A DNA stretch of 64,000 bases from Gammaproteobacteria bacterium (GTDB lineage Bacteria > Pseudomonadota > Gammaproteobacteria > GCA-001735895), in NCBI GenBank assembly GCA_050298595.1, contig JBNKUM010000118.1, positions 1 through 64,000 on the forward strand, read 5' to 3'. How positions within the stretch are numbered: the first letter of the stretch is position 1; every line of letters begins with the position of its first letter. A program made the position numbers and the translations under genes. Below the pieces are notes generated by a model. The model was given only the letters and a program-made list of their open reading frames with translations, was not told where the DNA came from and searched no databases. Positions 3,283-22,882 of this stretch are shown piece by piece.

Positions 3283-3755
3283 ACCCATACCCTGGTTGTC
3301 ATGAAATTTGCGACAGGAAAAACCTAGCAAGCATATACACTTTAATGTCGGTCGCAAAACGAAGCGACTTTAGCATCGCCAGAAAAAGGGAGCAATATGG
3401 GATACGATGTTAAAAGCGCCATAACAATGAGTTAAACGCCTTAATTGTCTGGCACACCGGTTTTGAAAATTGTGACTTGCTATACAAAAAAAATGTGCCG
3501 CATTTCCTTTTTTGGAGTAACATTACAACCGATTGCATCATTTAATTAAAAAATTGCACCTCAATCCCCAATATGCCCTAGAGCAACAAGGTAACCTTAG
3601 GAAGGGTACCTCATTACCTTCACTAGTATACAGCTCGATCGAGTTGCGATTTTATTTCAGACTTATCCACAATAGCTATTTTTTATCACTACCATTAACG
3701 AATAGTTATTTGAGACACAAAAAAAATTCAGTAACCTGTGTCCAGAGATTCCACA

Positions 3756-4442
3756 ATGAATCAGCAGGTCACTCTCGTGAAAGACGCTTTTAAAACTCCA
3801 GATGTTAAACCCCTTGTTGCTAGAATGGTTAACAATGGCTCTATAACCGATCCGGACTGTGCCAAAGGCAAGCTGCTAAACTGCGCTGCTCATTTATTTA
3901 AAACCAAAGGTTTTACGCGCACAACAGTTCGTGATATTGCCCGCGATGTAGGTATACTTTCCGGCAGTATTTTTCACCATTTTCCCAACAAAGAGTCCAT
4001 CCTTTGCGGAGCGATACAAGAAGCGTTGTTAATCGCCACCGAAAAAATGAAAACCTCTCTAGAACTAGCTTCCACTCCCAAGGAACGACTGCTGGCCTTG
4101 ATCCAATGTGAATTAGAAGCCATCCACGGCCTCACGGGAGAAGGATTCTCTCTGATGGTGAACGAATGGCGCAGTCTTAGCAGCGAGAGTCAGGCAGAGT
4201 TGCTGACACTAAAGGACGAGTACGAAAAACTTTGGATGGATACTCTGATTGAAGCCCGAGAAGTGAATCTAATTGCAGTGGAGAGTTTTTTAGTGCGACG
4301 TTTTTTGATCGGCGCTCTGTCCTATACATACAATTGGTTTAATTTCGATTGCGGCATGACTTTGGAAAACCTAGCCACCGATACCTTTAAGATGATCACC
4401 CAAGACAGTTTATCTAACATGAACGGGGCGCAGCGGCAGTAA
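3756..4442 (+). CDS. TetR/AcrR family transcriptional regulator (KstR2-like C-terminus)
   Basis: HTH LFKTKGFTRTTVRDIARDVGILSGSIFHHFPNKESIL; C-terminal GALSYTYNWF. Confidence 0.93.
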   Translation: MNQQVTLVKDAFKTPDVKPLVARMVNNGSITDPDCAKGKLLNCAAHLFKTKGFTRTTVRDIARDVGILSGSIFHHFPNKESILCGAIQEALLIATEKMKTSLELASTPKERLLALIQCELEAIHGLTGEGFSLMVNEWRSLSSESQAELLTLKDEYEKLWMDTLIEAREVNLIAVESFLVRRFLIGALSYTYNWFNFDCGMTLENLATDTFKMITQDSLSNMNGAQRQ

Positions 4443-4523
4443 ACCCATCGTTGCATAAATTTTCGGCCCAGAGCCGCTTCGCTCCTTCTATAGCCACATT
4501 TTCAGGGTCGTGCACGAAAAATC
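4442..4523 (+). repeat. Truncated family-B MITE copy (left arm only)
   Basis: AACCCATCGTTGCATAAATTTTCGGCCCAG...TTTTCAGGGTCGTGC nearly matches 10094-10166. Confidence 0.85.
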
Positions 4524-4526
4524 AAT

Positions 4527-6134
4527 TCAAGCTATCGGAGCGAACGCCGTCATTTTATCCAGGTCGCTACCCAGACTGTGTGAAAACAGACTGCTAAATT
4601 CGCCCTGCCGGCCGTGCAGCGCCATGTAGTTGAGAATCACTGTATCCACCAGAGCGGTGACACTGTTGGCAGCGGGCGATGAGGATGTATTGACATTACC
4701 GTCGGCGGTAAAACGGCCCAGCTGCTGTTGACTTTCGCTGAGCAACTGGGGTTGCCCCGCTGGGTTGTAAACCAGGAAAAACGCAGCGGCGGTCTGTTGA
4801 TTGTCCCCTGTCCATACACCCTTGCCTCCCCCATCGATAGAATCATCCGTCATACCGTTGCTAAATACGGATCCGTCACTGAAGACGTAGAGCATTATTG
4901 GCGTTCCCAGATTGGCGGCGTATTGCAGACAGGCGCCGATACAGCGCCCGGCGCGTTCATCGCGCAACTCTCCGGTGGCGCGGTCTCCAGTGTGGTAATC
5001 GTAACCGCCCATGGTAATCGTGCCGGCCCCTGCGAGCCCGGAGCCCACCAACTTGAGAATAGAAGCTGTTTTGGCAAATTCCCTGTCGTCCATATCCGCC
5101 AGAGAAAAAGGCGCACTGGCATTATCATCACTGACCAGGAGCGAATCACCTCTCGGGTCAAGGGCATCCGAACTGCTGTACTTATTGGTCAGATAAGCGC
5201 TTTCAACATAACCGCAGCGCAGAAGGTCTTCACGAATCACCGCATCCTTGCTGCGGCCACTGTCCTTATACGGAGCTGTCAAACCCGTATCGACGGTACC
5301 GATGCGCGAGTGGGAAATTTTGGCAATTGCCTCCATCACCTTCACCCTATCGTTCTGTTGCGGAAAGAAAGTCGCCAGATCGCCCACATCCACCAACCCC
5401 GTAACATCGGAAATGCGATCAATTTTTGTCGGCCGCACTTCGTTGTTGATCATTGACATGGGCGCCATGGAATTCCCCCCCGAATCGCTGTTGCGAGAAC
5501 CGATCAACGCCATAAGTTCACCGTTGGCTCCGGCGATATTAATGCCGTACATGGGATTATGGGGATTGTTTCCGGTATCGTTTTCGGAGCGCGCCGGAAT
5601 CACGGCGCCGTTGATCAGGGCGCGGTTGGCGGCGCTGACTCGTTCCAGAATACCCCGCAGCATGGCGCTTTCGGAGTGAAAGGCCAACCCCAGTTCACGA
5701 TTAATAAAATCGTTGCTGGCTGAATTGGCATTGGCGAGTGGCGGAAGCATATCCCCCGGTACTCCCAGCTTGCTATAGCCGGCTGTGCTTAGAAAATCCA
5801 GCTGTCCATCCATCCCCACCAATACGTTGGAACCGGCGATATTGGCACCGCCGGCCAGGTCGAAGCAGATAAAGGGAATATTACCGGTGGCACCGCTGCC
5901 GATACCGCACCGGGTTACTTCATTTTTAATGGCGTCGGACAAATAGTCGTTCCCCTGAGCCCAGGCCCGGGACAGATAGGGATTGGCAAACAGACCCAGC
6001 AGCGAGCTGCCGAAAACCGACCCCATACCTGCTTTAAAACCCTGGGCAATAAATTCACGGCGGGTTCGCGGACGACGGTGATCCGGGTGCTTGAGCGGCT
6101 GGTCCGGATTAAACAAGTTGCGACGCTTTGCCAT
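4527..6134 (-). CDS. Tat-exported DUF1501-like protein of unknown function
   Basis: Twin-arginine motif TRREFI, hydrophobic stretch and AWA cleavage site. Motifs DLAGGAN, GGYDYH and VFSDG resemble DUF1501 LxGGxD, GGWDTH and SEFGR. Confidence 0.75.
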   Translation of the reverse strand: MAKRRNLFNPDQPLKHPDHRRPRTRREFIAQGFKAGMGSVFGSSLLGLFANPYLSRAWAQGNDYLSDAIKNEVTRCGIGSGATGNIPFICFDLAGGANIAGSNVLVGMDGQLDFLSTAGYSKLGVPGDMLPPLANANSASNDFINRELGLAFHSESAMLRGILERVSAANRALINGAVIPARSENDTGNNPHNPMYGINIAGANGELMALIGSRNSDSGGNSMAPMSMINNEVRPTKIDRISDVTGLVDVGDLATFFPQQNDRVKVMEAIAKISHSRIGTVDTGLTAPYKDSGRSKDAVIREDLLRCGYVESAYLTNKYSSSDALDPRGDSLLVSDDNASAPFSLADMDDREFAKTASILKLVGSGLAGAGTITMGGYDYHTGDRATGELRDERAGRCIGACLQYAANLGTPIMLYVFSDGSVFSNGMTDDSIDGGGKGVWTGDNQQTAAAFFLVYNPAGQPQLLSESQQQLGRFTADGNVNTSSSPAANSVTALVDTVILNYMALHGRQGEFSSLFSHSLGSDLDKMTAFAPIA

Positions 6135-6182
6135 ATTCATTCCTGTCTGTTAACTTTTTCAATTTTTTTCTGGCTCAGGATT

Positions 6183-8759
6183 TTATTGCAGCAGCATCAC
6201 GGCGCTGCTCAAAGCCGTACTGCAGGCGGCTTTAACGATTGTCTGAGTGCGGCTGGAATCGGTTCCACAGGTACTGCAATCCCTCAGCTGTACAATGAGG
6301 GAATCCAATTCACTTCGGGTAACGGCGGAGAGACTCTGGGGACCTGTCAATGTCGAGCCGGGGGGCAGGTCTGCGCCGGCGACGTCCGGCAGATAGTCGG
6401 TCAGCAGCCTCATCAGCAGAGGATCGATAATATAATCCCGCCCGGCCTGAGTACTAAACGCCATACTGACATCAGCACTGAAATTGAAATCCCGAAATAC
6501 CTGCGCCCGCAACGCACTGTCATCCACCAGTTCCCCGCAGTAACTGGCCGCCAGCTGCACAATCCCCATCTGGTGCGAGGAAAGGAAACCATCGACATTG
6601 GGTACCGAAGGCATCTGTTGCTTGACGGTTGCGAACACTTGCTGAACATTCGCGTTGGCGCGAGTAACCCCGGTAAGCTTGGCAAAGGTCGCATCGATTT
6701 CTTCAAATGTCCGCAGCCCAAGCCGCGACTGTTTGTCGAAATCCACGGGTTCGTTGGGTACAGGTGCGGCACTCGAGGGACGATTGTAGCTGCGGGTGCC
6801 GAACTGATCGAAGGTAAGGAAGAACTCGTCCTGCTCCGGCCCCTGTTCCACCGCCATCACCGCCCCCAGCCGGGACAGACGTTGGCGCTGCTCGGCGGCA
6901 TAGTCGGCGCTGTTGACTGTGACATCAATATTGGCAAATGCCTGTCCCACAGGCGCTTCGCGACCGTTGACACCGATGCGAATTCCGCGAATAGGGATAG
7001 TGCCCGGGTCGGCATCCGGGTCGAGAATCTGAAAAAAGGGCTCGCTAAACAAGTAGCTGGAGATATCGTAGACCTGCACCTGAAACACAACGTAGGCGTC
7101 GCTGATGCCGTCGAGCAGATGCGATACGCTGAACATCAAATAGAATTTTTCCCCAACCCCGGCTTCATAGTTGTCTTGGATCTGGTCGTCCGTCATTATC
7201 CGATTGTAAATCGCCAGCAGCCGCACCGTTCCTTCCCAAAGATCATCGTTGGACACTTCGCTGCCCAATACAAGAGCATAGCTGTCATCCCAGTCCGCCA
7301 GATTGCCGCCGCCGGCGACGTCCAAATCTCCTGTGAACTCACCGTTTACGTAAATACGCCGGCCATTGAGCGGATCGAATGTCGCCACCACATGCTGTAG
7401 CGTTGCCTGCAAAACTTCAGCATCGTCATCGGTTGAAAGCGCCGGCGTGCCGTTTCCATCGGTAGCAGAACTGCGATTGAGGAAATCGTAATTGTACATG
7501 CTTTGGCCGAGGGTGAAGTTGCGAATATCGTCGCCGCCGGAATAGGCAATGATCCGTGCCGGACCTTCCTGGGTAACGTTTCCAGGCACGACCCAGGCTT
7601 CGAGACTGTACTCCCCCGTAGCTGAAATCAGATCGTAAAGCTTGCGGCTGGCGGTTGTAGATGCCTGCGCCTTGCCACCGCTCAGCCGCAGGCCAAATGA
7701 CGACAGTTTCTCCACCTCGCCGCTGAGATTTAAATTTAGCGCCGGGTCGACACCGCTGGTATCGAATGCCGTCGTGCTCACCGCTTTATCCTTGAATTCA
7801 TACAATGCAATTGCATTGGTGTCGTTGCGCCCGCCACTGCTGGCCAACACGCCGTCTCCGGCCAAGTTTACCGCCTTGCTCACCACCAGTGTGTCTGTGT
7901 CGACAGCGGTGGTTTCAATGCTGTCGGCAAAGGTCTGAATCAGATTCTGAACCGTCGCCGCGTTAGTCGCACAGGTTTCTCCGATCGCGGCATTTTCCCA
8001 GCAATTGTGGAATTCATTTTTTAATCGGACGACAAAGCGCGAGTTCGCCGGGTTGTTCAAATCCATTTTGCTTTTGGCATTTTCATAGGCGGTGGCGATA
8101 TCGCTGCTGGAAAAATACGGCTGCTGCTGCATGCGCTCGCCGTCTTCGGCGTGACAGGCCAGGCAGTTGGCACGATCCGGGTCTCGAAACAGATTCCACA
8201 GCAGAGTAAAACCGGCGGCGCTGTCGGGAAAAAACTTGGTTTCCCCCGGGTCGCGAATTTGATCGTCAGCCAGCGGCTGAAGCACAATCACGTTGTTTGC
8301 GCCACCCGCCACATTAGCCCATGCTTCGATATAGTTAGTGATAATCTCGGCGCACACCGAGGCGCTGCTCTCCCAGCAATTGTGACCGCCGCCAACTTTT
8401 TCCACCATGCGGGAACTGGAGGGCACGGTTAAATCGACAATACTATTGGCCGCGACATAAGCCAGGTTGATATCGTCGTCGCGGACAAAGGCCGGTGCCT
8501 GCCCGCCGCTGCCATGGCAGCCGCCACAGCGGTTTTCCCCCGCCAGATTGTTCCAGACATTGATTTTAAAATTCTTGACGTCTTCGGTATCCTCCGCCGG
8601 TCCTTTGTACACGACACCGCCGGTGGCGGGTGGTTCGGTCAAATCCGGGTTGGACGCATTGTCCGAATTGCTGCCGGAGCTGCAACCGGTAAATCCGGAA
8701 GTCATGCTGACGGCAAGCGCAACAATGCATAGCAGTTTTATGGTTCGCACCCCCACCAT
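6183..8759 (-). CDS. Lipoprotein with two c-type heme domains and a LamG/concanavalin-like jellyroll
   Basis: Lipobox FTGC; CGGCH and CLACH; LamG signatures (YSLEAWV, LQHVVATFD, RIYVNG, WEGTVRLLAIYNR). Confidence 0.85.
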   Translation of the reverse strand: MVGVRTIKLLCIVALAVSMTSGFTGCSSGSNSDNASNPDLTEPPATGGVVYKGPAEDTEDVKNFKINVWNNLAGENRCGGCHGSGGQAPAFVRDDDINLAYVAANSIVDLTVPSSSRMVEKVGGGHNCWESSASVCAEIITNYIEAWANVAGGANNVIVLQPLADDQIRDPGETKFFPDSAAGFTLLWNLFRDPDRANCLACHAEDGERMQQQPYFSSSDIATAYENAKSKMDLNNPANSRFVVRLKNEFHNCWENAAIGETCATNAATVQNLIQTFADSIETTAVDTDTLVVSKAVNLAGDGVLASSGGRNDTNAIALYEFKDKAVSTTAFDTSGVDPALNLNLSGEVEKLSSFGLRLSGGKAQASTTASRKLYDLISATGEYSLEAWVVPGNVTQEGPARIIAYSGGDDIRNFTLGQSMYNYDFLNRSSATDGNGTPALSTDDDAEVLQATLQHVVATFDPLNGRRIYVNGEFTGDLDVAGGGNLADWDDSYALVLGSEVSNDDLWEGTVRLLAIYNRIMTDDQIQDNYEAGVGEKFYLMFSVSHLLDGISDAYVVFQVQVYDISSYLFSEPFFQILDPDADPGTIPIRGIRIGVNGREAPVGQAFANIDVTVNSADYAAEQRQRLSRLGAVMAVEQGPEQDEFFLTFDQFGTRSYNRPSSAAPVPNEPVDFDKQSRLGLRTFEEIDATFAKLTGVTRANANVQQVFATVKQQMPSVPNVDGFLSSHQMGIVQLAASYCGELVDDSALRAQVFRDFNFSADVSMAFSTQAGRDYIIDPLLMRLLTDYLPDVAGADLPPGSTLTGPQSLSAVTRSELDSLIVQLRDCSTCGTDSSRTQTIVKAACSTALSSAVMLLQ

Positions 8760-8760
8760 C

Positions 8761-10044
8761 TTATTCTCCCATGCAATAGTCGGCGGATTCGGCGAACACC
8801 CGCTTGAATTTGAAATTGTGACTTCGAAAGCTGGCGGTCATGGCCTCAATCTGGTCACGGTCGGCCTGGTCTTCCGGCTCCCGCAGGCACACAGCGCGAA
8901 ATGCTTTCGTCACCTGACATTGAGCGAAGGCTTCGCTGCCGGCCAGCTCGCGGCCCATGCTGGCGGCGCCGTTGCCGTAGCCCGGCAGGCCGTCGCCGCT
9001 CCAGTCCCAGCCCAGGAGCTGGTTGGGCCCCTGGCGCCAATAGTTATCCCAGCGATCGTTTTCAGTAATATAACCGTAGGGAAAATTCGCGGCGTTAATC
9101 AGGTATTTGGGCTGTACCTGCCCGGGAGTGTATTCGATGCTGCCATTATCGGTATCCGGGTCATCATCGGGGTCGATAAAATTGTAGTAGGCAAATGCCT
9201 GTGCCAGCGGATCCATGCCACTGTGGCAACCGATGCAGTTATTCAAAAAAACACTGGAATCGCCGCCGGGACTGCGACTGACGTCCTGGCGGATACGGTC
9301 GGGAATACGGCTGGTATCATGCACCTGTTCTAGGTCATTACACAGATGGTTGAGCATGGTAAAACGGAAATTAGCGCGGTTGGTTCCGGCGATAAAAAAA
9401 GCCCTGGCAGCGGCACGGGAGGTGAGCACGCCGGCGACCGCGCCCGCGGGCAGCCCTGTGACGGACGACTGGGTGCGGCTGACTAAGTCCGTTTTAAAGT
9501 CTTTCCCCTCGCTCTCAAATTGTTCGTAGTGAGTATTGTCGCTGTTGGAATAGGCCGGCAGACCAATGCCATCCCGGCCGACATAAACAACATCGCCGTA
9601 TAACACCGTACGAAAGTCCACTTCGTCGCGCACCAGCCCGATCACGGTCGCGGTATAGTCGTTGAGCGGTGCGAAAACGGTCTGATCGCGGTTGGTCCAG
9701 GGGGTGGCGAGATTTTTAAGCGTTACGCTGTAGAAATAATCATTGTCGGCAGCGTCGATCGCCATCAGCGCCGCGCTTACGCCATGACCATCACCGGCAT
9801 TGATATTGGGGTCGCCACCGTTGCTGGCTTGCATGGAGTCAACCATTTCATTGAGCGCCTCTTCACTTGGCAGAACGCCCGTCAGGCGGTCGTAAATACG
9901 CCTGGCCTGTTCGTTGATATCCGCCTGGGCACCGGGCGCGAAGGCAAGCACACCAACGACACAACAACCGATGGACAACAGGCGTTTTCGCCGTGGCTCG
10001 CCACACCCGCTGCCAGAGGTCTTAAGGGGATTAAATAACGTCAT
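8761..10044 (-). CDS. Exported monoheme c-type cytochrome-like protein (DUF1588/DUF1585-like)
   Basis: Signal peptide ending AQA; CIGCHSGMDPLA resembles the CxxCH...DP motif of planctomycete-type cytochrome modules. Confidence 0.75.
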   Translation of the reverse strand: MTLFNPLKTSGSGCGEPRRKRLLSIGCCVVGVLAFAPGAQADINEQARRIYDRLTGVLPSEEALNEMVDSMQASNGGDPNINAGDGHGVSAALMAIDAADNDYFYSVTLKNLATPWTNRDQTVFAPLNDYTATVIGLVRDEVDFRTVLYGDVVYVGRDGIGLPAYSNSDNTHYEQFESEGKDFKTDLVSRTQSSVTGLPAGAVAGVLTSRAAARAFFIAGTNRANFRFTMLNHLCNDLEQVHDTSRIPDRIRQDVSRSPGGDSSVFLNNCIGCHSGMDPLAQAFAYYNFIDPDDDPDTDNGSIEYTPGQVQPKYLINAANFPYGYITENDRWDNYWRQGPNQLLGWDWSGDGLPGYGNGAASMGRELAGSEAFAQCQVTKAFRAVCLREPEDQADRDQIEAMTASFRSHNFKFKRVFAESADYCMGE

Positions 10045-10093
10045 GACAATTACGACCGCTCCATATCGCCAGAGCCCGCAGCCGGATAATGCT

Positions 10094-10284
10094 AACCCTA
10101 TCGTTGCATAAATTTTCGGCCCAGTAGCGCTTCGCTCCTTCTATGGCCGCGTTTTCAGGGTCGTGCTCAATTTTTCTCATCCTCACATAGGGTTAAGCTA
10201 TGCTCCGGTTAGAAAAATCTGCACGCGCTCCTGAAAATACCGCTCTAAAAGGACCCGAGCTCGAAAATTTATGCAACGATAGGG
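10094..10284. mobile_element. Complete family-B MITE-like element
   Basis: Perfect 23-bp terminal inverted repeats CCCTATCGTTGCATAAATTTTCG (10096-10118) and CGAAAATTTATGCAACGATAGGG (10262-10284). Flanking direct repeat ATAATGCT at 10086-10093 and 10285-10292. No transposase inside. Confidence 0.88.
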
Positions 10285-10652
10285 ATAATGCTGTGGATCT
10301 CCTAGTTACTTTTATAAACTTTTCATTAGTTTCAAAATTTTTATTACCAATTTACCTTTTACTCATTTCACTCTTACAAAGGATTTGGACTTTCTTTTAA
10401 TAAATTTTTAATAAACCTTTAATGAGCTTTAGCGAATTACACCCCGGTTATCCGACATGTAATTGGCCGTTTAATTTTTTAACCGGCAGGTTCGCTTCTT
10501 TCTCTTTTTTCTCTTAGCTTTTCTTTAAATCAGGGCTTATTTTTTATTTAAGCCCATTTTTCCAAGGCGGTTTGAAAAATGCTCTGAGTTCACAGGTTAA
10601 AACGAGAAACAGGTCTCATTTTTCAAAACCCAAATCAAGTTAGCCGTATTGT

Positions 10653-10668
10653 TGTGATTTAGTTCACA
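10653..10668. promoter_or_regulatory. CRP-type binding site in the divergent control region
   Basis: TGTGA-TTTAGT-TCACA is an exact TGTGA-N6-TCACA consensus in an AT-rich intergenic region. Confidence 0.7.
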
Positions 10669-11004
10669 CTTTCAACCGATCTGACTTTAGTGTTGTTCGA
10701 GAAGATCTCTATAAAAGTATTTGCATGCATAGTACACAGTGCCACAATAAAATTGCGCTTCTTTTATCAGAAAAAAATAACCATTGGTCACATTAAATTG
10801 GCGACAATTCCCAATTTAGTAAGAATTGAGAGGGGGTTCTGTTTCTAATATCCTATTGAAATAATAGCGTAACAATATCAGCTGAAGTAATGGATTATTG
10901 TTTTCAGGCACTGAATATTAGTGTGTTAATAAAATCGACACCAGAAAGAACATAAATACGTATAACTGCCACAAATGGTTCCATCGGCTCCGGCTGCAAC
11001 TGTT

Positions 11005-11070
11005 GTTAGCCAAAAGCGTTTGCCAAAAGTGTTTGCCAAAAAGAGTTAGCAAGAAGCGTTAGCAAAAAGC
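11005..11070 (+). repeat. Five tandem imperfect 13-bp repeats
   Basis: GTTAGCCAAAAGC / GTTTGCCAAAAGT / GTTTGCCAAAAAGA / GTTAGCAAGAAGC / GTTAGCAAAAAGC. Confidence 0.9.
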
Positions 11071-11147
11071 ATTGCCTGGGCTCATTGGCCTGTATAGCAT
11101 GTACGCCTCGACTAGAAGCGTGTGCGCCCTGACAAGGTATTCGAGAT

Positions 11148-13826
11148 ATGCAAGTATCCAATCGCAAGCCCTGCATGAAATACGCCTTCTGTGGCATTTC
11201 CTCCGCTTTGGTAATGGCTTGTGGGGGCGGTTCCAGCGGTGATCAGGAGCCGGACCCGGTCGCGGTGGATCTGCCTATTGCCTATGTCAAACGCCCCTTG
11301 CCCAGTGACGACCAGGGCGCGCGCAGCGCCGATAACGTGCTCACCCCCGCCGTCTTCAACCCCGGCGCGGAGCTGATCCTCAGGGACAGGGCCTCCGCCG
11401 GCGCCGGTGCGGTGACGGTTACCGCCGGCGTTTTCGAGGCGGGAGAGCTTTACGATGTTAAAGATCTGGAAGCTTCCAGTGACGGCGATAAAATTTTGTT
11501 TGCCATGCGCGCCCCCGAAATTGAAGGCCTCGATGAGGATGAGCAACCGAAATGGAATATCTGGGAATATGAACTCAGCAGCGACACCCTGCGGCGGATT
11601 ATTGAATCCGATATTGTCGCCGAGGCCGGCCAAGACTTGGCCCCGCACTACCTTCCCGATGGCCGCATTGTATTTTCGTCAACCCGCCAGCGCCGAAGCC
11701 GCGCAATTCTATTGGACGAAGGCAAACCGCAATACTCCGGCCTGGATGAAAGCAGAAATACTGAAGCCTTTGTGCTCCACGTGATGGACGACGACGGCGG
11801 CAATATCGAACAGATTACCTACAACCAGAGCCACGACCTGGACCCCACCGTACTGCAAAGCGGAGAAGTGCTTTTTACCCGCTGGGACAATATCGCCAAC
11901 CGCAACAGCCTGAGTTTGTACAAAGTCGATCCCAATGGCCGCAATCTCAGTATTCACTACGGCTACCACTGCCAGGATACTGGCACCGACGCCAGCACCG
12001 CGGTTTTTTTACAACCGCGGGAAATGCCCGACGGTAAAATTCTGGCGTCCCTGCGGGCGACGTCCAGCCTCAACCTCGGCGGCGATATAGTGGCCATAGA
12101 CAGCGCCAATTACACCGAAATCGATCAGCCGGTGGTGTTTAATTCCGGCGCCACAGGGCCGGGCCAGGAACCCCTGTCCACAGATACCGTGGTTACCACC
12201 GACATCGCCCCTTCCCCACACGGCCATTTCAGTTCTGCGTACCCGCTCTACGACGGCACCAACCGGCTGCTGGTAAGCTGGAGCCAGTGCCGCCTCACAG
12301 ACCCGGACACTGAAGAGATAATCCCCTGCACTGAGGAAAACCTGGCTATTGAAAATGTACAACAGGCTGCGCCTTTCTACGGCATCTGGATTTACAACCT
12401 CGACGATGGGACTCAACGGCCGGTGATAACGGCCACCGAGGGTACCCTGTTTACCGATGCCATTACCCTGGAACCCAGAACAGCGCCGACGTATATCGCT
12501 CCCAAAGAAGCGGTTCCGCGCACCGCGCTCAACGACGGTAACAACGATGAAAACGAAGTGGACGAAGACCTAGTGGCCGAGGGGGTAGGGGTTATTCATA
12601 TCCGCAGTGTTTACGACTTCGATGGCACAGATACATCACCGAACGGCATCGCCGACACCGCCGACCCGGCGTTGACAAGCGCCGATGAACGCCCGGCGCG
12701 GTTTCTGCGCATCGTCAAGGCAGTGCCGATTCCCGACCGGGATGTGCGCAATTTCGACAACAGTGCCTTTGGTGTCAACGCCAGCCAGTCGATGCGGGAC
12801 ATTATCGGTTATGCGCCAATCGAACCGGACGGCTCGGTAAAAATCAAGGTGCCGGCAGACATTCCCTTTGCCATCTCGGTACTGGATGGGCAAGGCAAAC
12901 GTCTGCCGGGTTACGCCCGCCATCAGAACTGGCTGCAGCTGCGCCCCGGCGAAGTGCGCGAGTGTAACGGCTGTCACACGGCCGATAGTGAAATCCCCCA
13001 CGGGCGCCCCGGCGCCGGCCCCGCTTCAATCAACAGTGGCGCTGTCGCCGTCGGTGAGGCTTTCCCAAACACCAATCCCCGATATTTTGCCGGCGATCCA
13101 GGGGAAACAATGGCAGAGATTTACGCCCGGGTGGAGGGTATTCGCACCCCGAGTCTGGATATCGAATTTGTCGACGAATGGGTGGACCCGGACAATGCCG
13201 CCACACCCGCGGCCGACAGCTTCGCGCTTGCCTACAACGACCTCGACACCCCCAAACCCACCAGCGATCAATGTATCACCACCTGGACCCCCCTCTGCCG
13301 TACCACACTGCATTACCCGACTCATATTCAGCCATTATGGGAAAAGGACCGCGGCGACAACACCTGTATCAATTGCCACAGCGACCAGGATGCCATGGGG
13401 AATCTGCGCGAGCCGGCGGGACACCTCGATTTGAGCGGCGCCACCTCCAACGCCAACACCGCCTACCTTGTCTCCTACCTGGAGCTACTGCGCACCGATG
13501 TGGAGCGCGAAGAAGTGGGCGGCCAACTACAACCGCGCCTCGAACTGGTCACCGATGCCGACGGCAACCCGGTTTACGAAACCAACCCGGACGACAGTCT
13601 GGTGACCGACGCCGACGGTAACCCGGTGCAGGCGACAACGACGATTCCTGTGACCCCAGCAATGTCGGCGGCCGGCGCCGCCGCGAGCTCCAACTTTTTT
13701 TCACCCGTGTTTGAAACCGTTGATCATAACGGCTTTTTGGAGCCGGCCGAGGTTAAACTGATCTCAGAATGGCTCGACATCGGCGCCCAGTACTATAATA
13801 ATCCGTTCGATGCGCCTGAGAATTGA
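11148..13826 (+). CDS. Lipoprotein with TolB/PD40-like beta-propeller, hydrazine-synthase-alpha-like middle domain and two c-type hemes
   Basis: Lipobox VMAC; PHYLPDGRIVFSSTR and DPTVLQSGEVLFTRWD propeller blades; GYAPIEPDGSVKIKVPADIP...GEVRECNGCH; second heme motif CINCH. Confidence 0.85.
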   Translation: MQVSNRKPCMKYAFCGISSALVMACGGGSSGDQEPDPVAVDLPIAYVKRPLPSDDQGARSADNVLTPAVFNPGAELILRDRASAGAGAVTVTAGVFEAGELYDVKDLEASSDGDKILFAMRAPEIEGLDEDEQPKWNIWEYELSSDTLRRIIESDIVAEAGQDLAPHYLPDGRIVFSSTRQRRSRAILLDEGKPQYSGLDESRNTEAFVLHVMDDDGGNIEQITYNQSHDLDPTVLQSGEVLFTRWDNIANRNSLSLYKVDPNGRNLSIHYGYHCQDTGTDASTAVFLQPREMPDGKILASLRATSSLNLGGDIVAIDSANYTEIDQPVVFNSGATGPGQEPLSTDTVVTTDIAPSPHGHFSSAYPLYDGTNRLLVSWSQCRLTDPDTEEIIPCTEENLAIENVQQAAPFYGIWIYNLDDGTQRPVITATEGTLFTDAITLEPRTAPTYIAPKEAVPRTALNDGNNDENEVDEDLVAEGVGVIHIRSVYDFDGTDTSPNGIADTADPALTSADERPARFLRIVKAVPIPDRDVRNFDNSAFGVNASQSMRDIIGYAPIEPDGSVKIKVPADIPFAISVLDGQGKRLPGYARHQNWLQLRPGEVRECNGCHTADSEIPHGRPGAGPASINSGAVAVGEAFPNTNPRYFAGDPGETMAEIYARVEGIRTPSLDIEFVDEWVDPDNAATPAADSFALAYNDLDTPKPTSDQCITTWTPLCRTTLHYPTHIQPLWEKDRGDNTCINCHSDQDAMGNLREPAGHLDLSGATSNANTAYLVSYLELLRTDVEREEVGGQLQPRLELVTDADGNPVYETNPDDSLVTDADGNPVQATTTIPVTPAMSAAGAAASSNFFSPVFETVDHNGFLEPAEVKLISEWLDIGAQYYNNPFDAPEN

Positions 13827-14637
13827 CAAACCAGCCATACGGATGCCCATGATCGACACAAAACCGCAGTACCCGTGGGCATTGCCAGCCGCTTTGCTCT
13901 TAGTGTTACTGATTACCCTGCCGGTCCTTTGCGCCTGGGCCGATGAGACAGCTGAAAGTGGTGATGAGCTGTTTGTGGTCGTTATCGCCGACCCCTATAT
14001 TGAATTACACAGCGGCCCCGGGCGGGGTTATCCCATTGTCCATGTCAGCGAAAAAGGTGAAACGGTTACCATCCTCAAGCAGCGCACCGACTGGTTTAAA
14101 ATCATGACCGCGCGCGGCAAAACCGGTTGGGTGAAACGCGAGCAGATGCAGGGGACGCTGGGACTGGATGGCCAGAACGTTGAACTCGGCGACCCCACAC
14201 AGTTGGATTATGTCGATCGGCGCTGGGAGATGGGGGTGCTCTGGGGCGATTTTGACGGCGCCAACGCGCTGACAGCATACGGCAGTTACCGTTTTACGCC
14301 CAACCTTTCCGCCGAACTGAAACTGGAGCAGGCGACCGGCAGTGTTTCCAACAGTAAAATGGCTAATCTGAACCTTGTCCACCAACCCTTTCCAGAATGG
14401 CGCTTTTCCCCGTTTTTTACCCTCGGCGTTGGCGTCATAAACACCGACCCGAGCGCGACCCTGGTGGAAACAGAGGACCGCACCGACAATGCCTTGTTGG
14501 TCGGCCTCGGCGCTTACTACTATTTTACCAGCCACTTTATGCTGCGGCTGGAATACAGCAACCATTTAATTTTAACCAGCCGCAACGAAAACGAGGAAGT
14601 ACACGAATGGAAGGCCGGATTCAGCGTATTTTTCTAG
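13810..14637 (+). CDS. Bacterial SH3 domain fused to an outer-membrane beta-barrel
   Basis: SH3b motif ELHSGPGRGYPI...W...GWV, then amphipathic strands ending GFSVFF. The start may instead be 13843 or 13849. Confidence 0.85.
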   Translation: MRLRIDKPAIRMPMIDTKPQYPWALPAALLLVLLITLPVLCAWADETAESGDELFVVVIADPYIELHSGPGRGYPIVHVSEKGETVTILKQRTDWFKIMTARGKTGWVKREQMQGTLGLDGQNVELGDPTQLDYVDRRWEMGVLWGDFDGANALTAYGSYRFTPNLSAELKLEQATGSVSNSKMANLNLVHQPFPEWRFSPFFTLGVGVINTDPSATLVETEDRTDNALLVGLGAYYYFTSHFMLRLEYSNHLILTSRNENEEVHEWKAGFSVFF

Positions 14638-15344
14638 AGCTGGCGCTCACCGCAACCCTCGCCCTGTGCTTGCCGGCGTCGTTGCAAGCACAGCAAGTCG
14701 GGGAAGAACGCCCCCCCGACACTCAGTCCGACGGCGACTCCACGGCCCGATCTGATACTCAATCCCACAACGAGAGCAACTCGGTGCTGGATAAAATTAT
14801 CACCCCGGAGATGAAACGCCGGCGGGTGCGGGAAGAGAAAATCGACAGCGAAGATATCGAGGTGGGGATTTTCTACGGCATCATGAGTATCGAGGATTTC
14901 GGCAGCAACAGAGTCACCGGCCTGCGCTTTGCCTACCACGTATCGGAGGATTTCTTTTTTGAAGCCAATTACGGGGAAAGCACGGCCGAAGAATCCAGCT
15001 TTGAAGTACTGAGCGGTACCGCGCAATTGCTGACGGATGAAGAAAGGGAACTCAGCTACTACAATCTTACTATCGGCTATAACCTGTTGCCGGGCGAAGT
15101 GTTTATCGGCGAAAAGTGGGCCTTTAATTCCAATTTTTACCTGATCGCCGGCGCCGGTAATACGGACTTCGCCGGCGATGAAGTGTTTACCTATACCCTC
15201 GGCGGCGGCCTGCGTCTGTTCGCCACTGATTGGGTGGCACTGCATCTGGATATGCGCGACCATATCTTCGATCTGGATATTTTCGGCGAAGAAAAAACCA
15301 GTAACAATCTGGAAGCCCATATTGGGCTAACGTTTTTTTTCTAA
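14607..15344 (+). CDS. Outer-membrane beta-barrel protein
   Basis: GAGGA RBS before ATG 14607 (MEGRIQRIF), signal peptide ending LQA, amphipathic strands, C-terminal GLTFFF. Confidence 0.85.
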   Translation: MEGRIQRIFLELALTATLALCLPASLQAQQVGEERPPDTQSDGDSTARSDTQSHNESNSVLDKIITPEMKRRRVREEKIDSEDIEVGIFYGIMSIEDFGSNRVTGLRFAYHVSEDFFFEANYGESTAEESSFEVLSGTAQLLTDEERELSYYNLTIGYNLLPGEVFIGEKWAFNSNFYLIAGAGNTDFAGDEVFTYTLGGGLRLFATDWVALHLDMRDHIFDLDIFGEEKTSNNLEAHIGLTFFF

Positions 15345-15395
15345 GTCAAAGTCACTTCGGCATCGGTATCAGTACAGAGGGGAGAGAGCAGCAAG

Positions 15396-15887
15396 ATGAA
15401 AGTTTTTTTTGCGGTATTCTGCGCAGCGGCGCTGACATTTCAAGCGTTTGCTGAAACCAAAAAACTCAGCGGCGCCGCCCCGGATTTCACTCTGAAAAGC
15501 CGCGCCGGTAAAAACCTGCGCCTGAAGGAACTGCGCGGGCAAGTGGTGATGTTGAATTTCTGGGCTTCCTGGTGCGGCCCCTGTCGCCAGGAAATGCCGC
15601 TGCTGGATCAACTTTATCAGCGCTACAATCGCGCCGGCTTTACTATTCTCGGTGTCAACCTGGATGCAAGCCCGGCCGATGCCAATCGCTATCTGAAAAA
15701 AACCGATGTCAGTTTTCCCATTCTTTACGATATCGAGAGCAGCGTCGGCGAGACTTTCCATGTCAGCGCCATGCCGACAACGATTTTGATAGATCGCAAC
15801 GGCAATTTGCGTTATCAGCACAAAAGTTATAAATCCGGGGATGAGGAGAAATACCGCCAGTACATTCGGGAGTTGATTAGAGAATGA
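15396..15887 (+). CDS. TlpA/ResA-family periplasmic thiol-disulfide oxidoreductase
   Basis: APDFTL, NFWASWCGPCRQEMP, cis-Pro motif AMPTT, and a signal peptide. Confidence 0.95.
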   Translation: MKVFFAVFCAAALTFQAFAETKKLSGAAPDFTLKSRAGKNLRLKELRGQVVMLNFWASWCGPCRQEMPLLDQLYQRYNRAGFTILGVNLDASPADANRYLKKTDVSFPILYDIESSVGETFHVSAMPTTILIDRNGNLRYQHKSYKSGDEEKYRQYIRELIRE

Positions 15888-16156
15888 ATAAATACAAACG
15901 GGCTCTCAACTGTATTTTCAAGTACATTTTCAAGTACAGCGCGGCACTGTGTCTTATTCTGCTGGGTGGCTGCAGCTCCCTGCCCAGCGGCATAGAGCCC
16001 TGGGTCAAACCCTATGAAAGACAACACCTGGCCGATCCGATTATGAGTTTCGAGCGCGATGCCGTCGCCACCCGTTATATCAACCACGTCTATGAAGCAC
16101 GCGAAGCCGCCCGCGGCGCCGAAGGCAGCGCAGGAGGTGGTTGTGGCTGCAACTGA
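15884..16156 (+). CDS. DUF4266 family small lipoprotein
   Basis: Lipobox LGGC, WVKPYER..LADPIM, C-terminal GGGCGCN. Confidence 0.9.
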   Translation: MNKYKRALNCIFKYIFKYSAALCLILLGGCSSLPSGIEPWVKPYERQHLADPIMSFERDAVATRYINHVYEAREAARGAEGSAGGGCGCN

Positions 16157-17330
16157 GATAACGCCGGCGGCCTGGCTGCGGCTGGCGCTGGCTTTGGTCA
16201 TTGCCGCCGTGGTGGCACTGCTGGCAAAAATGAGCCTGGCCACGGTGCTGCCGGAGGATCGCCTGGATATTCTCTACCACAGCTTCGACGGCGGCGGCGT
16301 AACAATTGACGGCCCTTCGGTTTTAGTGCGCAAGGAGTTCGCCGACGCGGTATCTGTTTACGCCAACTACTACGCGGATTATGTCAGCAGTGCTTCGATC
16401 GATGTTGAGGTTTCCGGCGCCAGCCGTTATGCCGAAGAGCGCACGGAGTACTCCGTCGGCGCCGAATATCTGCACGACCGCACCATCATGAACGTCAGCT
16501 ACACCAACAGCAGTGAAAATGACTATGACGCCGAAACCTTTGCCGTGGGAGTCAGTCAGGATTTTTTCGGCGATCTAACCACACTATCCATGGGCTTTAG
16601 CCTGGGTCAGGATGACGTCGGAAACAATACCGATGAGGCATTTGCCGAGGAAGCCGAACACCGCCGTTACAGCATCGGCCTGTCCCAGGTGCTAACAAAA
16701 AACTGGATCGCCAGTATTGGTCTTGAAACCGTCGCCGACGAGGGTTTTTTACAAAATCCCTACCGTTTTGTGCGCTTTCTCGCCCCATTCAGTGCCACAC
16801 CTTTCGGCACCGAAGCGGAAAATTATCCCGAAACCCGCAACAGCGATGCCGTGGCGCTACGCACTATCTATTATTTACCCTATCGGGCCGCCCTGCGGGG
16901 GGAATATCGCAACTACAATGACAACTGGGGCATTGAAGCTGACAACTTCGAGATCCGCTACACGCATCCGCTGAAAAGCAACTGGATGCTGGAAGCCAAA
17001 CTGCGTTTCTATAAACAGACCAAGGCCGACTTTTACAGCGACCTGTTCGAGTTTCGTAACGCACAAGAATTCAGAGCCAGAGACAAAGAGCTGAGTACTT
17101 ACACCAACCGCACATTCGGCCTCGGTGTCACTTACCAACTGAAAGCGGACTTTTTATCTGCCTTCGAAAAAAGCACTGTCAATCTCTATTGGGATCATAT
17201 GCAGTTCGATTACGACGATTTCCGCGATGCCAGAGTCAGCCTCAATGATCCGACCGTAAACGCCGGCGAGGAACCTCTGTACAGCTTCGATGCTGATGTG
17301 ATTCGACTGTACTTTTCTTTTTGGTATTAG
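16143..17330 (+). CDS. DUF3570 family outer-membrane beta-barrel protein
   Basis: GTG at 16143 follows AGGAGG and overlaps DUF4266. Amphipathic strands, G.LQNPYR motif, C-terminal YFSFWY, canonical position after TlpA-DUF4266. Confidence 0.85.
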   Translation: MAATEITPAAWLRLALALVIAAVVALLAKMSLATVLPEDRLDILYHSFDGGGVTIDGPSVLVRKEFADAVSVYANYYADYVSSASIDVEVSGASRYAEERTEYSVGAEYLHDRTIMNVSYTNSSENDYDAETFAVGVSQDFFGDLTTLSMGFSLGQDDVGNNTDEAFAEEAEHRRYSIGLSQVLTKNWIASIGLETVADEGFLQNPYRFVRFLAPFSATPFGTEAENYPETRNSDAVALRTIYYLPYRAALRGEYRNYNDNWGIEADNFEIRYTHPLKSNWMLEAKLRFYKQTKADFYSDLFEFRNAQEFRARDKELSTYTNRTFGLGVTYQLKADFLSAFEKSTVNLYWDHMQFDYDDFRDARVSLNDPTVNAGEEPLYSFDADVIRLYFSFWY

Positions 17331-17349: not shown

Positions 17350-17439
17350 GTAGCTTCTCAATAACCCGGGGTATTTGTGCTTTCTATCCGGCGGCCATCC
17401 GCCTGACACTGTGCCGCCCCCGGATTATTGAGAAGCTAC
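17350..17439. mobile_element. Family-A MITE-like element (90 bp)
   Basis: 22-bp terminal inverted repeats GTAGCTTCTCAATAACCCGGGG and CCCCGGATTATTGAGAAGCTAC (1 mismatch). The interior matches 23488-23590 apart from an internal deletion. Confidence 0.88.
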
Positions 17440-18036
17440 TTTCACACTACTACCCCTTAAAAAAATTTCACTGTAATGTTCTGCTACCATTTCAACATCA
17501 ATGTCTACATCCTGTTTTGAGCGATACCAGGAGGAAATTGAAGTCAGCAAACCAGTAAAAGCGCGCACCGAAATATAAACATCCAGATGTGGGTTCATCT
17601 CACCACGCTGTTGAGCCCGTGCAAATAACTGCTCCAGCCGCTTGTGGTAAAAATGAGATTGGCTGCGAATATTACCGCGCCGCTCAATGGGAATAAATTG
17701 GCGTTCGTCGTTGAACACTATCATATAGGCCGCACGATCTTGCAGGGATATCAGCGTGTGGTTAAAAATCGCCAGGATCCGATCGGCAAATGATTGGTCT
17801 GTTTCCAAAAGTGACTCCAGATACGCCGTCTGGTACTTGATCCCCTCCAGACACACCGCCTCCAGCGCCGCCTCTTTGGAAGGAAAATAATAATAAAGGC
17901 TACCCTGCTTGATATCGAGCCTATTAGCGATGTCAATAGTAGAGGCACCGTGATAGCCCTTGTCCGCAAACACAGCTGCAGCCGCGTCGACAGCCGCTAT
18001 ATAGCGCTTGTCATATTTGGATTTCTTATCCACCAC
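17425..18036 (-). CDS. TetR/AcrR family transcriptional regulator
   Basis: HTH VFADKGYHGASTIDIANRLDIKQGSLYYYFPSKE. Confidence 0.93.
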   Translation of the reverse strand: MVDKKSKYDKRYIAAVDAAAAVFADKGYHGASTIDIANRLDIKQGSLYYYFPSKEAALEAVCLEGIKYQTAYLESLLETDQSFADRILAIFNHTLISLQDRAAYMIVFNDERQFIPIERRGNIRSQSHFYHKRLEQLFARAQQRGEMNPHLDVYISVRAFTGLLTSISSWYRSKQDVDIDVEMVAEHYSEIFLRGSSVKVASQ

Positions 18037-21898: not shown

Positions 21899-22864
21899 GT
21901 GCTGATCAAGACTAAAGCGCCGCACCAACTGACTGAAAATGATGTCACCGACCCCAAGCTTTACTGCAATCGTCGCCGGTTTTTAAAAACAGGTCTCTAC
22001 GGCGGCACGGCTCTTTCTCTGGCCAGTTACCTGCCCAATCTGGCTTGGGCTTCAATAGCGGAGTTCAGCGATAAAATCGCCAGCGCACCCAACACCGTAA
22101 AGGTTGATGAGAAATTGAACAACTTCGAGGATATCACCCATTACAACAACTTTTACGAACTGGGCACTGACAAGGGGGATCCGGTGGAGAATGCCGATGC
22201 GTTAGTCACCGCTCCCTGGTCTGTCACCGTGGAGGGGGAATGCGCCAAACCCGGCTCCTACACACTGGAGGACATTCTTAAACCCCACGATTTTGAGGAA
22301 CGCATATACCGATTTCGCTGTGTCGAAGCCTGGTCCATGGTTATTCCGTGGGTCGGCTTTCCACTGGCGGATCTACTGCAGCGTTTCCAACCCAACAATG
22401 ACGCTAAATTTGTCGCTTTCGAAACACTTTACGACCGCAAGAATCCACTGCCGGGGCAGCAGCGTAAGGTCCTGCGCTGGCCCTATCGCGAAGGCCTGCG
22501 CATGGATGAAGCCATGCACCCATTGACACTGGTGGCCGTTGGCTTATACGGCAAACCACTGCCCAACCAAAACGGCGCCCCGCTGCGACTTGTCGTACCC
22601 TGGAAATACGGTTTTAAAAGCATCAAATCGATTGTGAAGATTCGCTTCACCAGAGAGCAGCCCGATACCAGTTGGAATATGTCTGCGTCGTCCGAGTACG
22701 GGTTTTATTCCAACGTAAACCCCAAGGTGAGTCATCCCCGCTGGAGCCAGAGCCGAGAGCGGCGCATTGGCGAGTTGTTTAAACGCGACACCTTGATGTT
22801 TAACGGCTACGAGGAGCAGGTGGCCGGCATGTATCAAGGCATGGATCTGAAACGCTTTTACTAA
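21899..22864 (+). CDS. msrP: Periplasmic methionine sulfoxide reductase, molybdopterin catalytic subunit
   Basis: Tat [52 protein letters not shown]. Confidence 0.97.
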
Positions 22865-22882
22865 GGCATGAGTCGTTGACCG

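Follow-up and report, generated by a model that had tools for sequence, protein, structure and literature searches.

A 64,000-nucleotide stretch of DNA from a member of the Gammaproteobacteria (GenBank assembly GCA_050298595.1, contig JBNKUM010000118.1, positions 1 to 64,000), here called the window, contains nine long open reading frames (ORFs) between positions 4527 and 17330, arranged in two divergent sets in the window's ORF list. These genes, designated g1 to g9, are described here together with the redox system of the cell envelope that they may encode. The left operon, on the minus strand, starts with g1 (8761-10044), which encodes an exported monoheme c-type cytochrome of 427 residues with one CxxCH motif. 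It continues with g2 (6183-8759), for a diheme lipoprotein of 858 residues with a lipobox, two CxxCH motifs and a Laminin_G_3 domain (Pfam, 4.7e-19), and ends with g3 (4527-6140), for a protein of 537 residues whose N-terminal twin-arginine motif, TRREF, marks it for export by the twin-arginine translocation (Tat) pathway. The right operon, on the plus strand, starts with g4 (11148-13826), for a lipobox-containing protein of 892 residues with two CxxCH motifs and the HZS_alpha middle domain of Pfam PF18582. There follow g5 (13810-14637), matched by Pfam models SH3_3 (1e-9) and OMP_b-brl (1e-10); g6 (14607-15344), a barrel of the OMP_myx_plus type (NCBIfam TIGR04565, 7.2e-52); g7 (15396-15887), a Redoxin/AhpC-TSA protein of the periplasmic TlpA/ResA type of thiol-disulfide oxidoreductase, with active site WCGPC; g8 (15884-16156), a DUF4266 lipoprotein (Pfam, 1.4e-22) ending in GGGCGCN; and g9 (16143-17330), a DUF3570 protein (Pfam, 4.5e-42). 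Between the divergent operons lies a control region of 1103 bp with 38% G+C (10045-11147).

A preliminary description of this DNA had proposed nine genes in two operons diverging from a region of about 1.1 kb, with all nine products exported, five CxxCH motifs in total, and overlaps at four of the five junctions of the right operon. Each of these points held up on closer inspection. Export signals were judged by eye, backed by family conservation: the lipobox cysteine is invariant or at least 95% conserved in each of three proteins (C26 of g2, at least 95%; C25 of g4 and C30 of g8, both invariant), and the arginine pair of g3, R27 and R28, is invariant in 37 of 37 sequences. Exactly five CxxCH motifs occur in the nine proteins (one in g1, two each in g2 and g4, none in the rest), as against 15 in a six-frame translation of the whole window. 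With the preferred start codons, four junctions of the right operon overlap, by 17, 31, 4 and 14 nt, while the fifth is a gap of 51 nt; the first overlap, of g4 with g5, vanishes if the true start of g5 is the ATG at 13843 or 13849. The three barrel candidates all end in aromatic residues (...FSVFF in g5, ...LTFFF in g6 and ...FSFWY in g9).

Related loci were fetched with a profile of 24 g4 homologues, one genome per species, and the best 80 of 585 relatives were kept; synteny was then read from tblastn searches of the nine window proteins against these 80 loci, with TlpA absence scored at E<=1e-5. Loci with at least 6.5 kb of upstream sequence (60 loci) were evaluable for the left operon, those with at least 4.8 kb downstream (67 loci) for the right, and those with both (57 loci) for the full set. 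All 80 belong to the Gammaproteobacteria and span many orders, with carriers that include Microbulbifer, Marinobacter, Alteromonas, Paraglaciecola, Colwellia, Thalassotalea and Shewanella electrodiphila, and also Thiodiazotropha and tubeworm symbionts, Steroidobacteraceae and Woeseiaceae; similar clusters in other marine Gammaproteobacteria had been mentioned in the preliminary description, correctly. The left operon is complete and divergent beside the right operon in 58 of the 60 evaluable loci, all five genes downstream of g4 are found in 58 of 67, and the full nine-gene set is present in 49 of 57, so that the two operons do co-occur. Every one of the nine misses on the right (9/67 loci) lacks TlpA only, and a g5 homologue was found in 67 of 67 loci with sufficient downstream sequence. 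The two exceptions on the left are L062, where g1 is displaced by 8.7 kb at a contig end, and L031, from Glaciecola sp. UBA2563, the only fully evaluable locus without left-operon genes within 10 kb upstream. Genes that flank the cluster in the window (two TetR genes, APS kinase and PhoH) were matched in none of the 80 loci, and a TonB receptor in one. Since the flanking genes are not conserved, the conserved unit comprises the nine genes. None of the five CxxCH motifs is lost in any aligned homologue: the g1 motif stands in 62 of 62 sequences, both g2 motifs in 56 of 56 and both g4 motifs in 75 of 75.

Judged by the families of their products, g7, g8 and g9 (TlpA, DUF4266 and DUF3570) are the ApbE flavinylation-associated module of Méheust et al. 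(eLife 2021, PMC8238504). The passages of that paper on DUF3570 show biochemically that ApbE flavinylates a Chlorobium luteolum DUF3570 protein at two [S/T]GA[S/T] sites, with covalent flavin mononucleotide (FMN), and describe clusters of ApbE, DUF3570, a thioredoxin-like protein and DUF4266, with or without DsbD, whose function is left uncertain. The preliminary description had seen a thiol-redox module here: the thioredoxin is present, while the known link to ApbE, and with it the flavin cofactor, had been missed. Its statement that no function had been demonstrated holds for the nine-gene cluster, for which none was found, and is only partly true overall, given the flavinylation of DUF3570 in Chlorobium. 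With residues numbered from the GTG at 16137, g9 carries two tandem motifs of the ApbE type, D81-Y-V-S-S-A-S87 and D89-V-E-V-S-G-A-S97, where S97 aligns with the S96 column of the family alignment; the GTG at 16143 has an AGGAGG ribosome-binding site 6 nt before it. Across 37 family sequences the tandem reads D-x-x-S-[S/G/A]-A-S followed by D-V-x-x-[T/S]-A-S, with the serine of the first motif (S87) invariant and that of the second at least 90% conserved. The first motif of g9 has serine where the consensus has glycine, and SGAS is found in eight relatives. In the DUF4266 family C87, C89 and the string GGGCGC are as invariant as the lipobox cysteine in 37 sequences. Position 82 of g3 and positions 333 and 763 of g4 carry SGAT motifs, which were considered as further flavinylation sites; they are not conserved in the family consensus and were treated as chance.

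The locus and the clusters described in PMC8238504, as far as its passages on them go, share the three families in the same order, a DUF4266 protein ending in CxC, and two tandem serine motifs. They differ in the thioredoxin, which here belongs to Redoxin/AhpC-TSA rather than PF13899; in the first motif, here SSAS and not SGA[ST]; in having no ApbE or DsbD in the window; and in the setting, since here the module is part of a set of nine genes that also encode two additional barrels and cytochromes with five hemes in all.

The neighbours of related loci bear on whether the nine genes form one system. ORF clustering placed ApbE (PF02424, 2e-81) no more than 10 kb away in 26 of the 80 related loci; of the 52 loci whose sequence extends about 10 kb to either side, 20 have it. 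In seven loci its distance from DUF3570 is at most 200 bp, and in twelve the same holds for its distance from the last left-operon gene. That ApbE, whose substrate is encoded in the right operon, often stands at the end of the left operon provides independent evidence for one system. It speaks against the alternative that two or three independent modules are merely adjacent here, namely the DUF3570 module, the HzsA-like protein with its barrels, and the cytochromes of the left operon. Clusters of DUF3570, DUF4266, thioredoxin and ApbE do stand alone in other phyla, both in the clusters covered by the pertinent passages of PMC8238504 and on a Hymenobacter plasmid (one of only three distant Bacteroidota copies that a plasmid search for DUF3570 returned), and L031 has the right operon with no left operon within 10 kb. 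Yet of the 60 evaluable loci, which come from many orders of Gammaproteobacteria, 58 have the left operon beside the right, with every other flanking gene variable, and we regard chance adjacency as very improbable.

Of the three beta-barrels proposed in the preliminary description, two, g5 and g6, are identified by Pfam and NCBIfam models; the third, DUF3570, emerges from structure prediction. For g6 the TIGR04565 score is 175.6 bits against a cut-off of 60, and the start at 14607 gives an N-terminus resembling a signal peptide; g5 appears from its domain matches to be an exported protein in which a periplasmic SH3 domain is fused to a small outer-membrane beta-barrel. The AlphaFold2 (AF2) model of g9, with a mean predicted local distance difference test (pLDDT) of 87.8 and a predicted template modelling score (pTM) of 0.80, has a signal-peptide helix and then beta strands over residues 42-396. 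Compared with PDB entries by Foldseek, it gave 449 matches at E<=1e-3, and every one listed is an outer-membrane barrel: the PelB porin (9h80, top, 3.5e-9), FadL, OmpG, AlgE, PgaA and the barrels of TonB-dependent receptors, with template modelling scores (TM-scores) of only about 0.4-0.5. The model thus predicts DUF3570 to be an outer-membrane beta-barrel of about 16 strands, closest to barrels of the polysaccharide-export, FadL and OmpG types. Its strand connections alternate between short ones, of 2-4 residues with one of 9, and long ones, of 12, 29, 27 and 17 residues. The flavinylation loop (86-97) follows strand 3. By the usual topology rule the long loops, the flavinylation loop among them, would lie at the extracellular end.

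A barrel paired with a lipoprotein had been suggested in the preliminary description as a subject for complex modelling, and one such pair passed. Mature DUF3570 modelled with mature DUF4266 scored 0.80 (0.80, 0.83 and 0.80 in separate runs), against 0.03 for the best of three controls. Of 157 solved complexes 116 attain that mark, as do 2 of 215 mismatched pairs, counts that are rough since our own alignments were used. The runs share at least 87% of contacts, and the partner has a pLDDT of at least 67. No solved relative of either family was found (0 PDB sequence matches at E<=1 for both), and with no comparable complex among solved structures, it is improbable that the pass reflects one memorised by the predictor. 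In the model the contacts fall on alternate barrel residues of 12 of the 16 strands, and this set is the less hydrophobic one (38% against 60% hydrophobic), so the contacting residues would be lumen-facing. Within the modelled barrel, DUF4266 residues of about 53-61 lie nearer the periplasmic end and residues 69-81 nearer the loops; in strand 1, residues 44 to 50 contact DUF4266 residues 61 to 69, and residues 388 to 392 of the last strand contact 69 to 61. This order of contacts would bring the glycine-rich CxC tail out close to the flavin loop. The prediction is thus that the DUF4266 CxC lipoprotein occupies the DUF3570 lumen; the model supports such binding and does not show it.

On this basis we put forward, as a possible though doubtful proposal, that DUF3570 and DUF4266 make up a new trans-outer-membrane redox device, a barrel with two covalent flavins on a mouth loop and a lipoprotein plug whose flexible CxC tail reaches the flavins. 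If true, a heme-free flavin/thiol site at the surface would connect to lipoprotein cytochromes, kin of the hydrazine synthase (HZS) alpha subunit and of PSCyt proteins, as a counterpart of Mtr-type conduits with other chemistry, in hundreds of marine gammaproteobacterial species. The MtrCAB, PioAB and Pcc conduits have a multiheme periplasmic cytochrome of eight or more hemes, for example a deca-heme one, in a large barrel. As those conduits are generally described, the resemblance would lie in a redox protein inside an outer-membrane barrel with lipoprotein cytochromes alongside, and the differences in the insert, here a 60-residue CxC lipoprotein, in the barrel of about 16 strands, in the one or two hemes of each cytochrome, and in the flavin on the barrel. 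A conduit of the Mtr/Pcc type was rejected on heme number (1, 2, 2 and 0, set against the numbers generally taken to define such conduits), which agrees with the contrast drawn in the preliminary description. Electron transfer through porins, also suggested there, goes further than the model, which supports only a lipoprotein in the DUF3570 barrel. LptD/LptE, as generally known, and PelB/PelC likewise pair a lipoprotein with an outer-membrane barrel; they have no sequence relation to these proteins, and those systems are not redox-active.

The role of the thioredoxin admits another explanation, to which we assign an appreciable minority chance: TlpA, and perhaps the DUF4266 cysteines too, would serve biogenesis only, keeping CxxCH or CxC reduced during passage through the oxidising periplasm, in the manner of ResA/CcmG or of TlpA elsewhere, with the electron path made of hemes and flavin. 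By Pfam g7 matches AhpC-TSA (2.9e-29) and Redoxin (1e-28), and its best NCBIfam match is ResA (2.6e-36), followed by TlpA (3.5e-22) and DsbE/CcmG, all maturation reductases, although all these NCBIfam scores lie under the cut-offs. Five CxxCH sites are encoded beside it. Loss of TlpA from 9 of 67 loci in which the other genes stay is what would be expected of a replaceable helper; counting the shorter loci L027 and L034, operon TlpA is missing while DUF4266 and DUF3570 are present in L008, L010, L014, L024, L025, L027, L028, L029, L034, L050 and L057, and there g6 nearly abuts DUF4266. The modelled CxC, moreover, is at the barrel end far from the periplasm and would be beyond the reach of a periplasmic thioredoxin once assembled. 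Against this explanation, thioredoxin-like genes accompany DUF4266, DUF3570 and ApbE in hundreds of clusters, which the passages of PMC8238504 that treat them describe without mention of cytochromes.

The g4 protein, the first of the right operon, appears from sequence comparison to be a diheme outer-membrane-type lipoprotein related to the HZS alpha subunit. It scores 58.9 bits against PF18582 (7.4e-16), above the cut-off of 26.6, and the profile of 24 homologues matched only one PDB chain, 5c2v_A (E 1.7e-13), the HZS alpha subunit. The matches are collinear in three segments, giving a layout of beta-propeller, HZS_alpha middle domain with the first CxxCH, and C-terminal second heme. The beta-propeller named in the preliminary description is borne out by the first of these segments, and the HZS_alpha middle domain had been overlooked. 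Both CxxCH motifs are invariant in the family alignment, and 5771 proteins among 8000 candidates scored are relatives at E<=1e-3. Heme alpha-I of HZS is unusually ligated, by a tyrosine four residues after the motif histidine (a spacing given in PMC12758564), and is accompanied by a Zn site. In the alignment, taken without structural superposition, the position +4 after the heme histidine of g4 holds a nearly invariant serine, Ser614, and an invariant His618 follows. The remaining eight cluster proteins match no Pfam or NCBIfam domain of the HZS beta or gamma partners. Hydrazine synthase or anammox chemistry was accordingly rejected: no beta or gamma homologue is present, the NCBIfam hydrazine_alpha score is 51.5 bits against an equivalog cut-off of 800, and serine replaces the tyrosine ligand. 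Further differences from HZS alpha are that g4 is a lipoprotein and occurs in aerobic Gammaproteobacteria. The account of HzsA homologues in PMC12758564 gives none outside anammox bacteria a confirmed function. Within the cluster, g4 is probably the substrate-facing enzyme.

This kinship lends some interest to a second alternative, in which the system would detoxify or repair a small reactive molecule (a nitrogen oxide, hydroxylamine, peroxide or oxidised envelope component), with the HzsA-like heme as catalyst and thiol and flavin as reductant. Among solved structures g4 has a single relative, an enzyme in which the homologous heme deals with hydroxylamine and ammonia, according to PMC12758564; the input resembles a DsbD/thioredoxin supply; and the organisms that carry the cluster are for the most part aerobes, or else sulfur-oxidising symbionts living at oxic-anoxic interfaces. 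A periplasmic methionine sulfoxide reductase, msrP with msrQ, is encoded 4.5 kb downstream of the cluster (21899-23503, plus strand), but this neighbourhood is not conserved, being absent among the recurrent neighbours of related loci. No oxidative or nitrosative stress regulator is linked to the cluster, and the LamG, SH3, small-barrel and Tat-exported components go unexplained by simple detoxification. We judge this alternative unlikely.

The left operon resembles another known arrangement. The heme motif of g1 reads CIGCHSGMDP, and g1 appears from its sequence to be a sub-threshold relative of the planctomycete PSCyt3 (DUF1588) and PSD2 (DUF1585) domains: g1 itself scores 19.9 bits against PSD2, where the Pfam cut-off is 25.8, and has E 0.25 against PSCyt3, both sub-threshold, while among 37 family members PSD2 is matched by 35 (best E 2.8e-6) and PSCyt3 by 14 (best 0.0062). 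No PDB relative of g1 was found by sequence. The g2 protein contains two repeats of a CxxCH...HxCW...C module, C78/H82/H126/C128 and C199/H203/H251/C253, and, its own cluster aside, the named Atlas clusters closest to it are those of PSCyt1/PSD3-5/Laminin_G_3 proteins (0.88-0.89), taken as a lead only. PSCyt/PSD cytochrome genes come with DUF1501 or DUF1552 partner genes, as reported in the portion of PMC5615132 that concerns them. Shared with those pairs are CxxCH proteins with PSD2/PSCyt3-like regions and Laminin_G_3, followed by a Tat-type partner gene; unlike them, the locus has the cytochrome split into two genes, its Pfam matches are sub-threshold or near, and the partner matches neither DUF1501 nor DUF1552.

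That partner, g3, had been called DUF1501-like in the preliminary description, a label that found no support from sequence models. Hidden Markov models (HMMs) of DUF1501 and DUF1552 match none of 37 family members and none of the 50 distant representatives scanned from 150 listed, so both assignments were rejected at the HMM level; no PDB sequence relative exists among the entries searched, and fold matches are non-significant. For g3 itself no Pfam or NCBIfam match appeared at E<=1. An Atlas score of 0.92 for DUF1501, with 159 shared features, serves as a lead only, and the automatic name 'GspF family' used in some sources is a misnomer. The family is large, with 1541 representatives at E<=1e-3, and is without a Pfam model. 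Its invariant residues are D94, N187-D188-T189, H194 and D381-Y382-H383, and D94, N187-D188-T189, H194 and D381-x-H383 would fit a metal site of the alkaline-phosphatase superfamily. The AF2 model (pLDDT 77, pTM 0.79) found no PDB match by Foldseek at E<=1e-3; all the weak matches listed are alkaline-phosphatase-superfamily enzymes, including sulfatases (best E 0.011), and the core is possibly alkaline-phosphatase-like. DUF1501 and DUF1552 are themselves, we presume, linked to the alkaline-phosphatase clan.

These features recall a third alternative, suggested for PSCyt genes, in which the system would process or take up a surface polymer or glycan: LamG would bind a carbohydrate, g3 would act in the manner of a sulfatase or phosphatase, and the cytochromes would oxidise the substrate. 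The Laminin_G_3 domain of g2, the uniform identity of the weak g3 fold matches, and a TonB-dependent receptor gene upstream in the window are consistent with it. However, those fold matches are non-significant, the 80 neighbourhoods show no recurrent glycoside hydrolase or sugar transporter, and the TonB receptor is matched in only one of them, so that we give this explanation little credence.

Taken together, gene content, synteny and motif conservation lead us to favour, with moderate confidence, the reading that the nine genes are one co-inherited, outer-membrane-centred heme-flavin-thiol redox system of the gammaproteobacterial envelope. Three kinds of redox centre would be present: five c-type hemes, covalent flavin, and cysteine pairs. 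The g4 protein, HZS-alpha-like, would bring a propeller together with two hemes, one in a domain of catalytic type and one for electron transfer, and the small barrels g5 and g6 would anchor the assembly. ApbE, presumably encoded elsewhere in the genome, would load FMN on two serines of the strand-3 loop of DUF3570, while DUF4266 would thread the barrel lumen with its lipid anchor at the periplasmic face and its CxC tail at the flavin-loop end. In g1 and g2 we may have a split cytochrome set of the planctomycete PSCyt type, a soluble monoheme protein and a diheme LamG lipoprotein, with g3 as a Tat-exported accessory catalytic partner of an unnamed family. Reducing equivalents from the periplasm might enter through thiols, from DsbD/CcdA to TlpA to the DUF4266 CxC, and through heme, via the monoheme g1. 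They would then move through the FMN on DUF3570 and the lipoprotein cytochromes g2 and g4, to or from an extracytoplasmic substrate held by the propeller and LamG proteins at the outer membrane; we infer topology, electron direction and path, and the presence of such a substrate from the arrangement of these components.

Several points weigh against this reading or parts of it. Synteny covers only the 80 closest of 585 relatives, all found via g4, and so does not speak for distant relatives or for the converse dependence. ApbE and DsbD/CcdA are absent from the 64-kb window, by Pfam and NCBIfam searches of its ORFs and, for ApbE, also by tblastn with a relative's protein; flavinylation in this organism is therefore assumed. 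The loci that lack TlpA imply that thiol input is dispensable or replaceable. Placement of the loops inside or outside the cell follows from the canonical topology rule for outer-membrane proteins, not from data, and the least certain parts of the model are the DUF4266 tail (82-90) and the flavin loop (pLDDT<50 at 91-96). DUF4266 has only the terminal CxC, so there is no obvious chain of redox centres across the barrel. In the 73 divergent intergenic regions compared no conserved regulatory motif was found, the best 8-mer occurring in 11 as against 10 in shuffles. Finally, the full-text literature searched yielded no expression, fitness or biochemical data and no functional study on the cluster.

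The intergenic region of the window is the longest of the 73, for which the median is near 290 bp. It contains a palindromic element of 195 bp resembling a miniature inverted-repeat transposable element (MITE) or repetitive extragenic palindrome (REP), at 10093-10287, some 50 bp upstream of g1. Its arms of 26 nt show 96% complementarity, and the element helps explain the record length. At 4440-4517, between the stop codons of the left TetR gene and g3, there is an incomplete copy of about 78 nt with the same orientation, so that the left operon is bracketed by copies, and no further copy occurs in the window. About 80 nt upstream of the g4 start codon, at 11005-11070, a 13-nt unit (GTTAGCCAAAAGC) is repeated five times in tandem with 81% matches, and could be a set of regulator binding sites. 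A promoter-like scan of the control region gave 3 sites against a shuffled mean of 3.0, and an Rfam scan of it returned no family over threshold. Individual 10-mers recur in up to eight of the intergenic sequences, probably from close relatives.

Two TetR genes, at 3738-4442 (plus strand) and 17425-18036 (minus strand), both with a TetR_C_24 C-terminal domain, flank the cluster. As dedicated regulators of it they were rejected: they share 30% identity over 70 residues only, and neither is matched in the 80 loci. Farther away, a 1573-residue ORF at 29489-34210 (minus strand) has an unusual fusion of a resistance-nodulation-division (RND) efflux permease (24-1067) to a GGDEF diguanylate cyclase (1356-1570), adjoined by an RND adaptor gene at 34266-35444. 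In relatives, a second conserved module, absent from the window, stands just after DUF3570 or the left operon, often with ApbE between. It consists of a 193-residue protein of no family, a 654-residue tetratricopeptide repeat (TPR) protein, a TPR protein of about 1000 residues with YbgF/BamD-like repeats, a 227-residue TPR lipoprotein and a 101-residue protein, found in 37, 37, 24, 17 and 8 of the 80 loci, respectively, none with CxxCH; examples are L032:15954-22248, L009:16029-22543 and L005:548-3175. L031 retains the TPR module downstream of its right operon.

The components of the cluster belong to described but uncharacterised groups, and the DUF3570 module was described in 2021. The nine-gene unit is not described in the full-text literature searched, a body that excludes the supplementary tables of PMC8238504, which might list it; nor did that literature yield a description of a link between the DUF3570 module and HzsA-like and PSCyt-like cytochromes, or of DUF3570 as a lipoprotein-plugged outer-membrane barrel. 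In PMC8238504 the word 'barrel' occurs 0 times, and the passages and word matches seen in that paper mention no nine-gene unit, barrel fold or plug; DUF3570 goes unmentioned in a later preprint of that field. New here are the barrel model of DUF3570, the predicted place of DUF4266 in its lumen, the apparent HZS-alpha kinship of g4, and the PSCyt resemblance of the left operon.

What is understood of extracytoplasmic electron transfer in Gram-negative bacteria comes almost entirely from multiheme porin-cytochrome conduits, and the cluster may add a second design. The nine-gene unit joins three orphan groups, the HZS-alpha relatives, the PSCyt-type cytochromes with their partner enzyme, and the DUF3570 module. 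As all three are abundant in genomes and without assigned function, a phenotype found for any one of them would serve to annotate the other two as well. Carriers that are in culture and genetically tractable include Marinobacter, Microbulbifer, Alteromonas and Shewanella electrodiphila. Since the carriers include abundant marine heterotrophs and chemosynthetic symbionts, the substrate of the system may matter for marine redox cycling.

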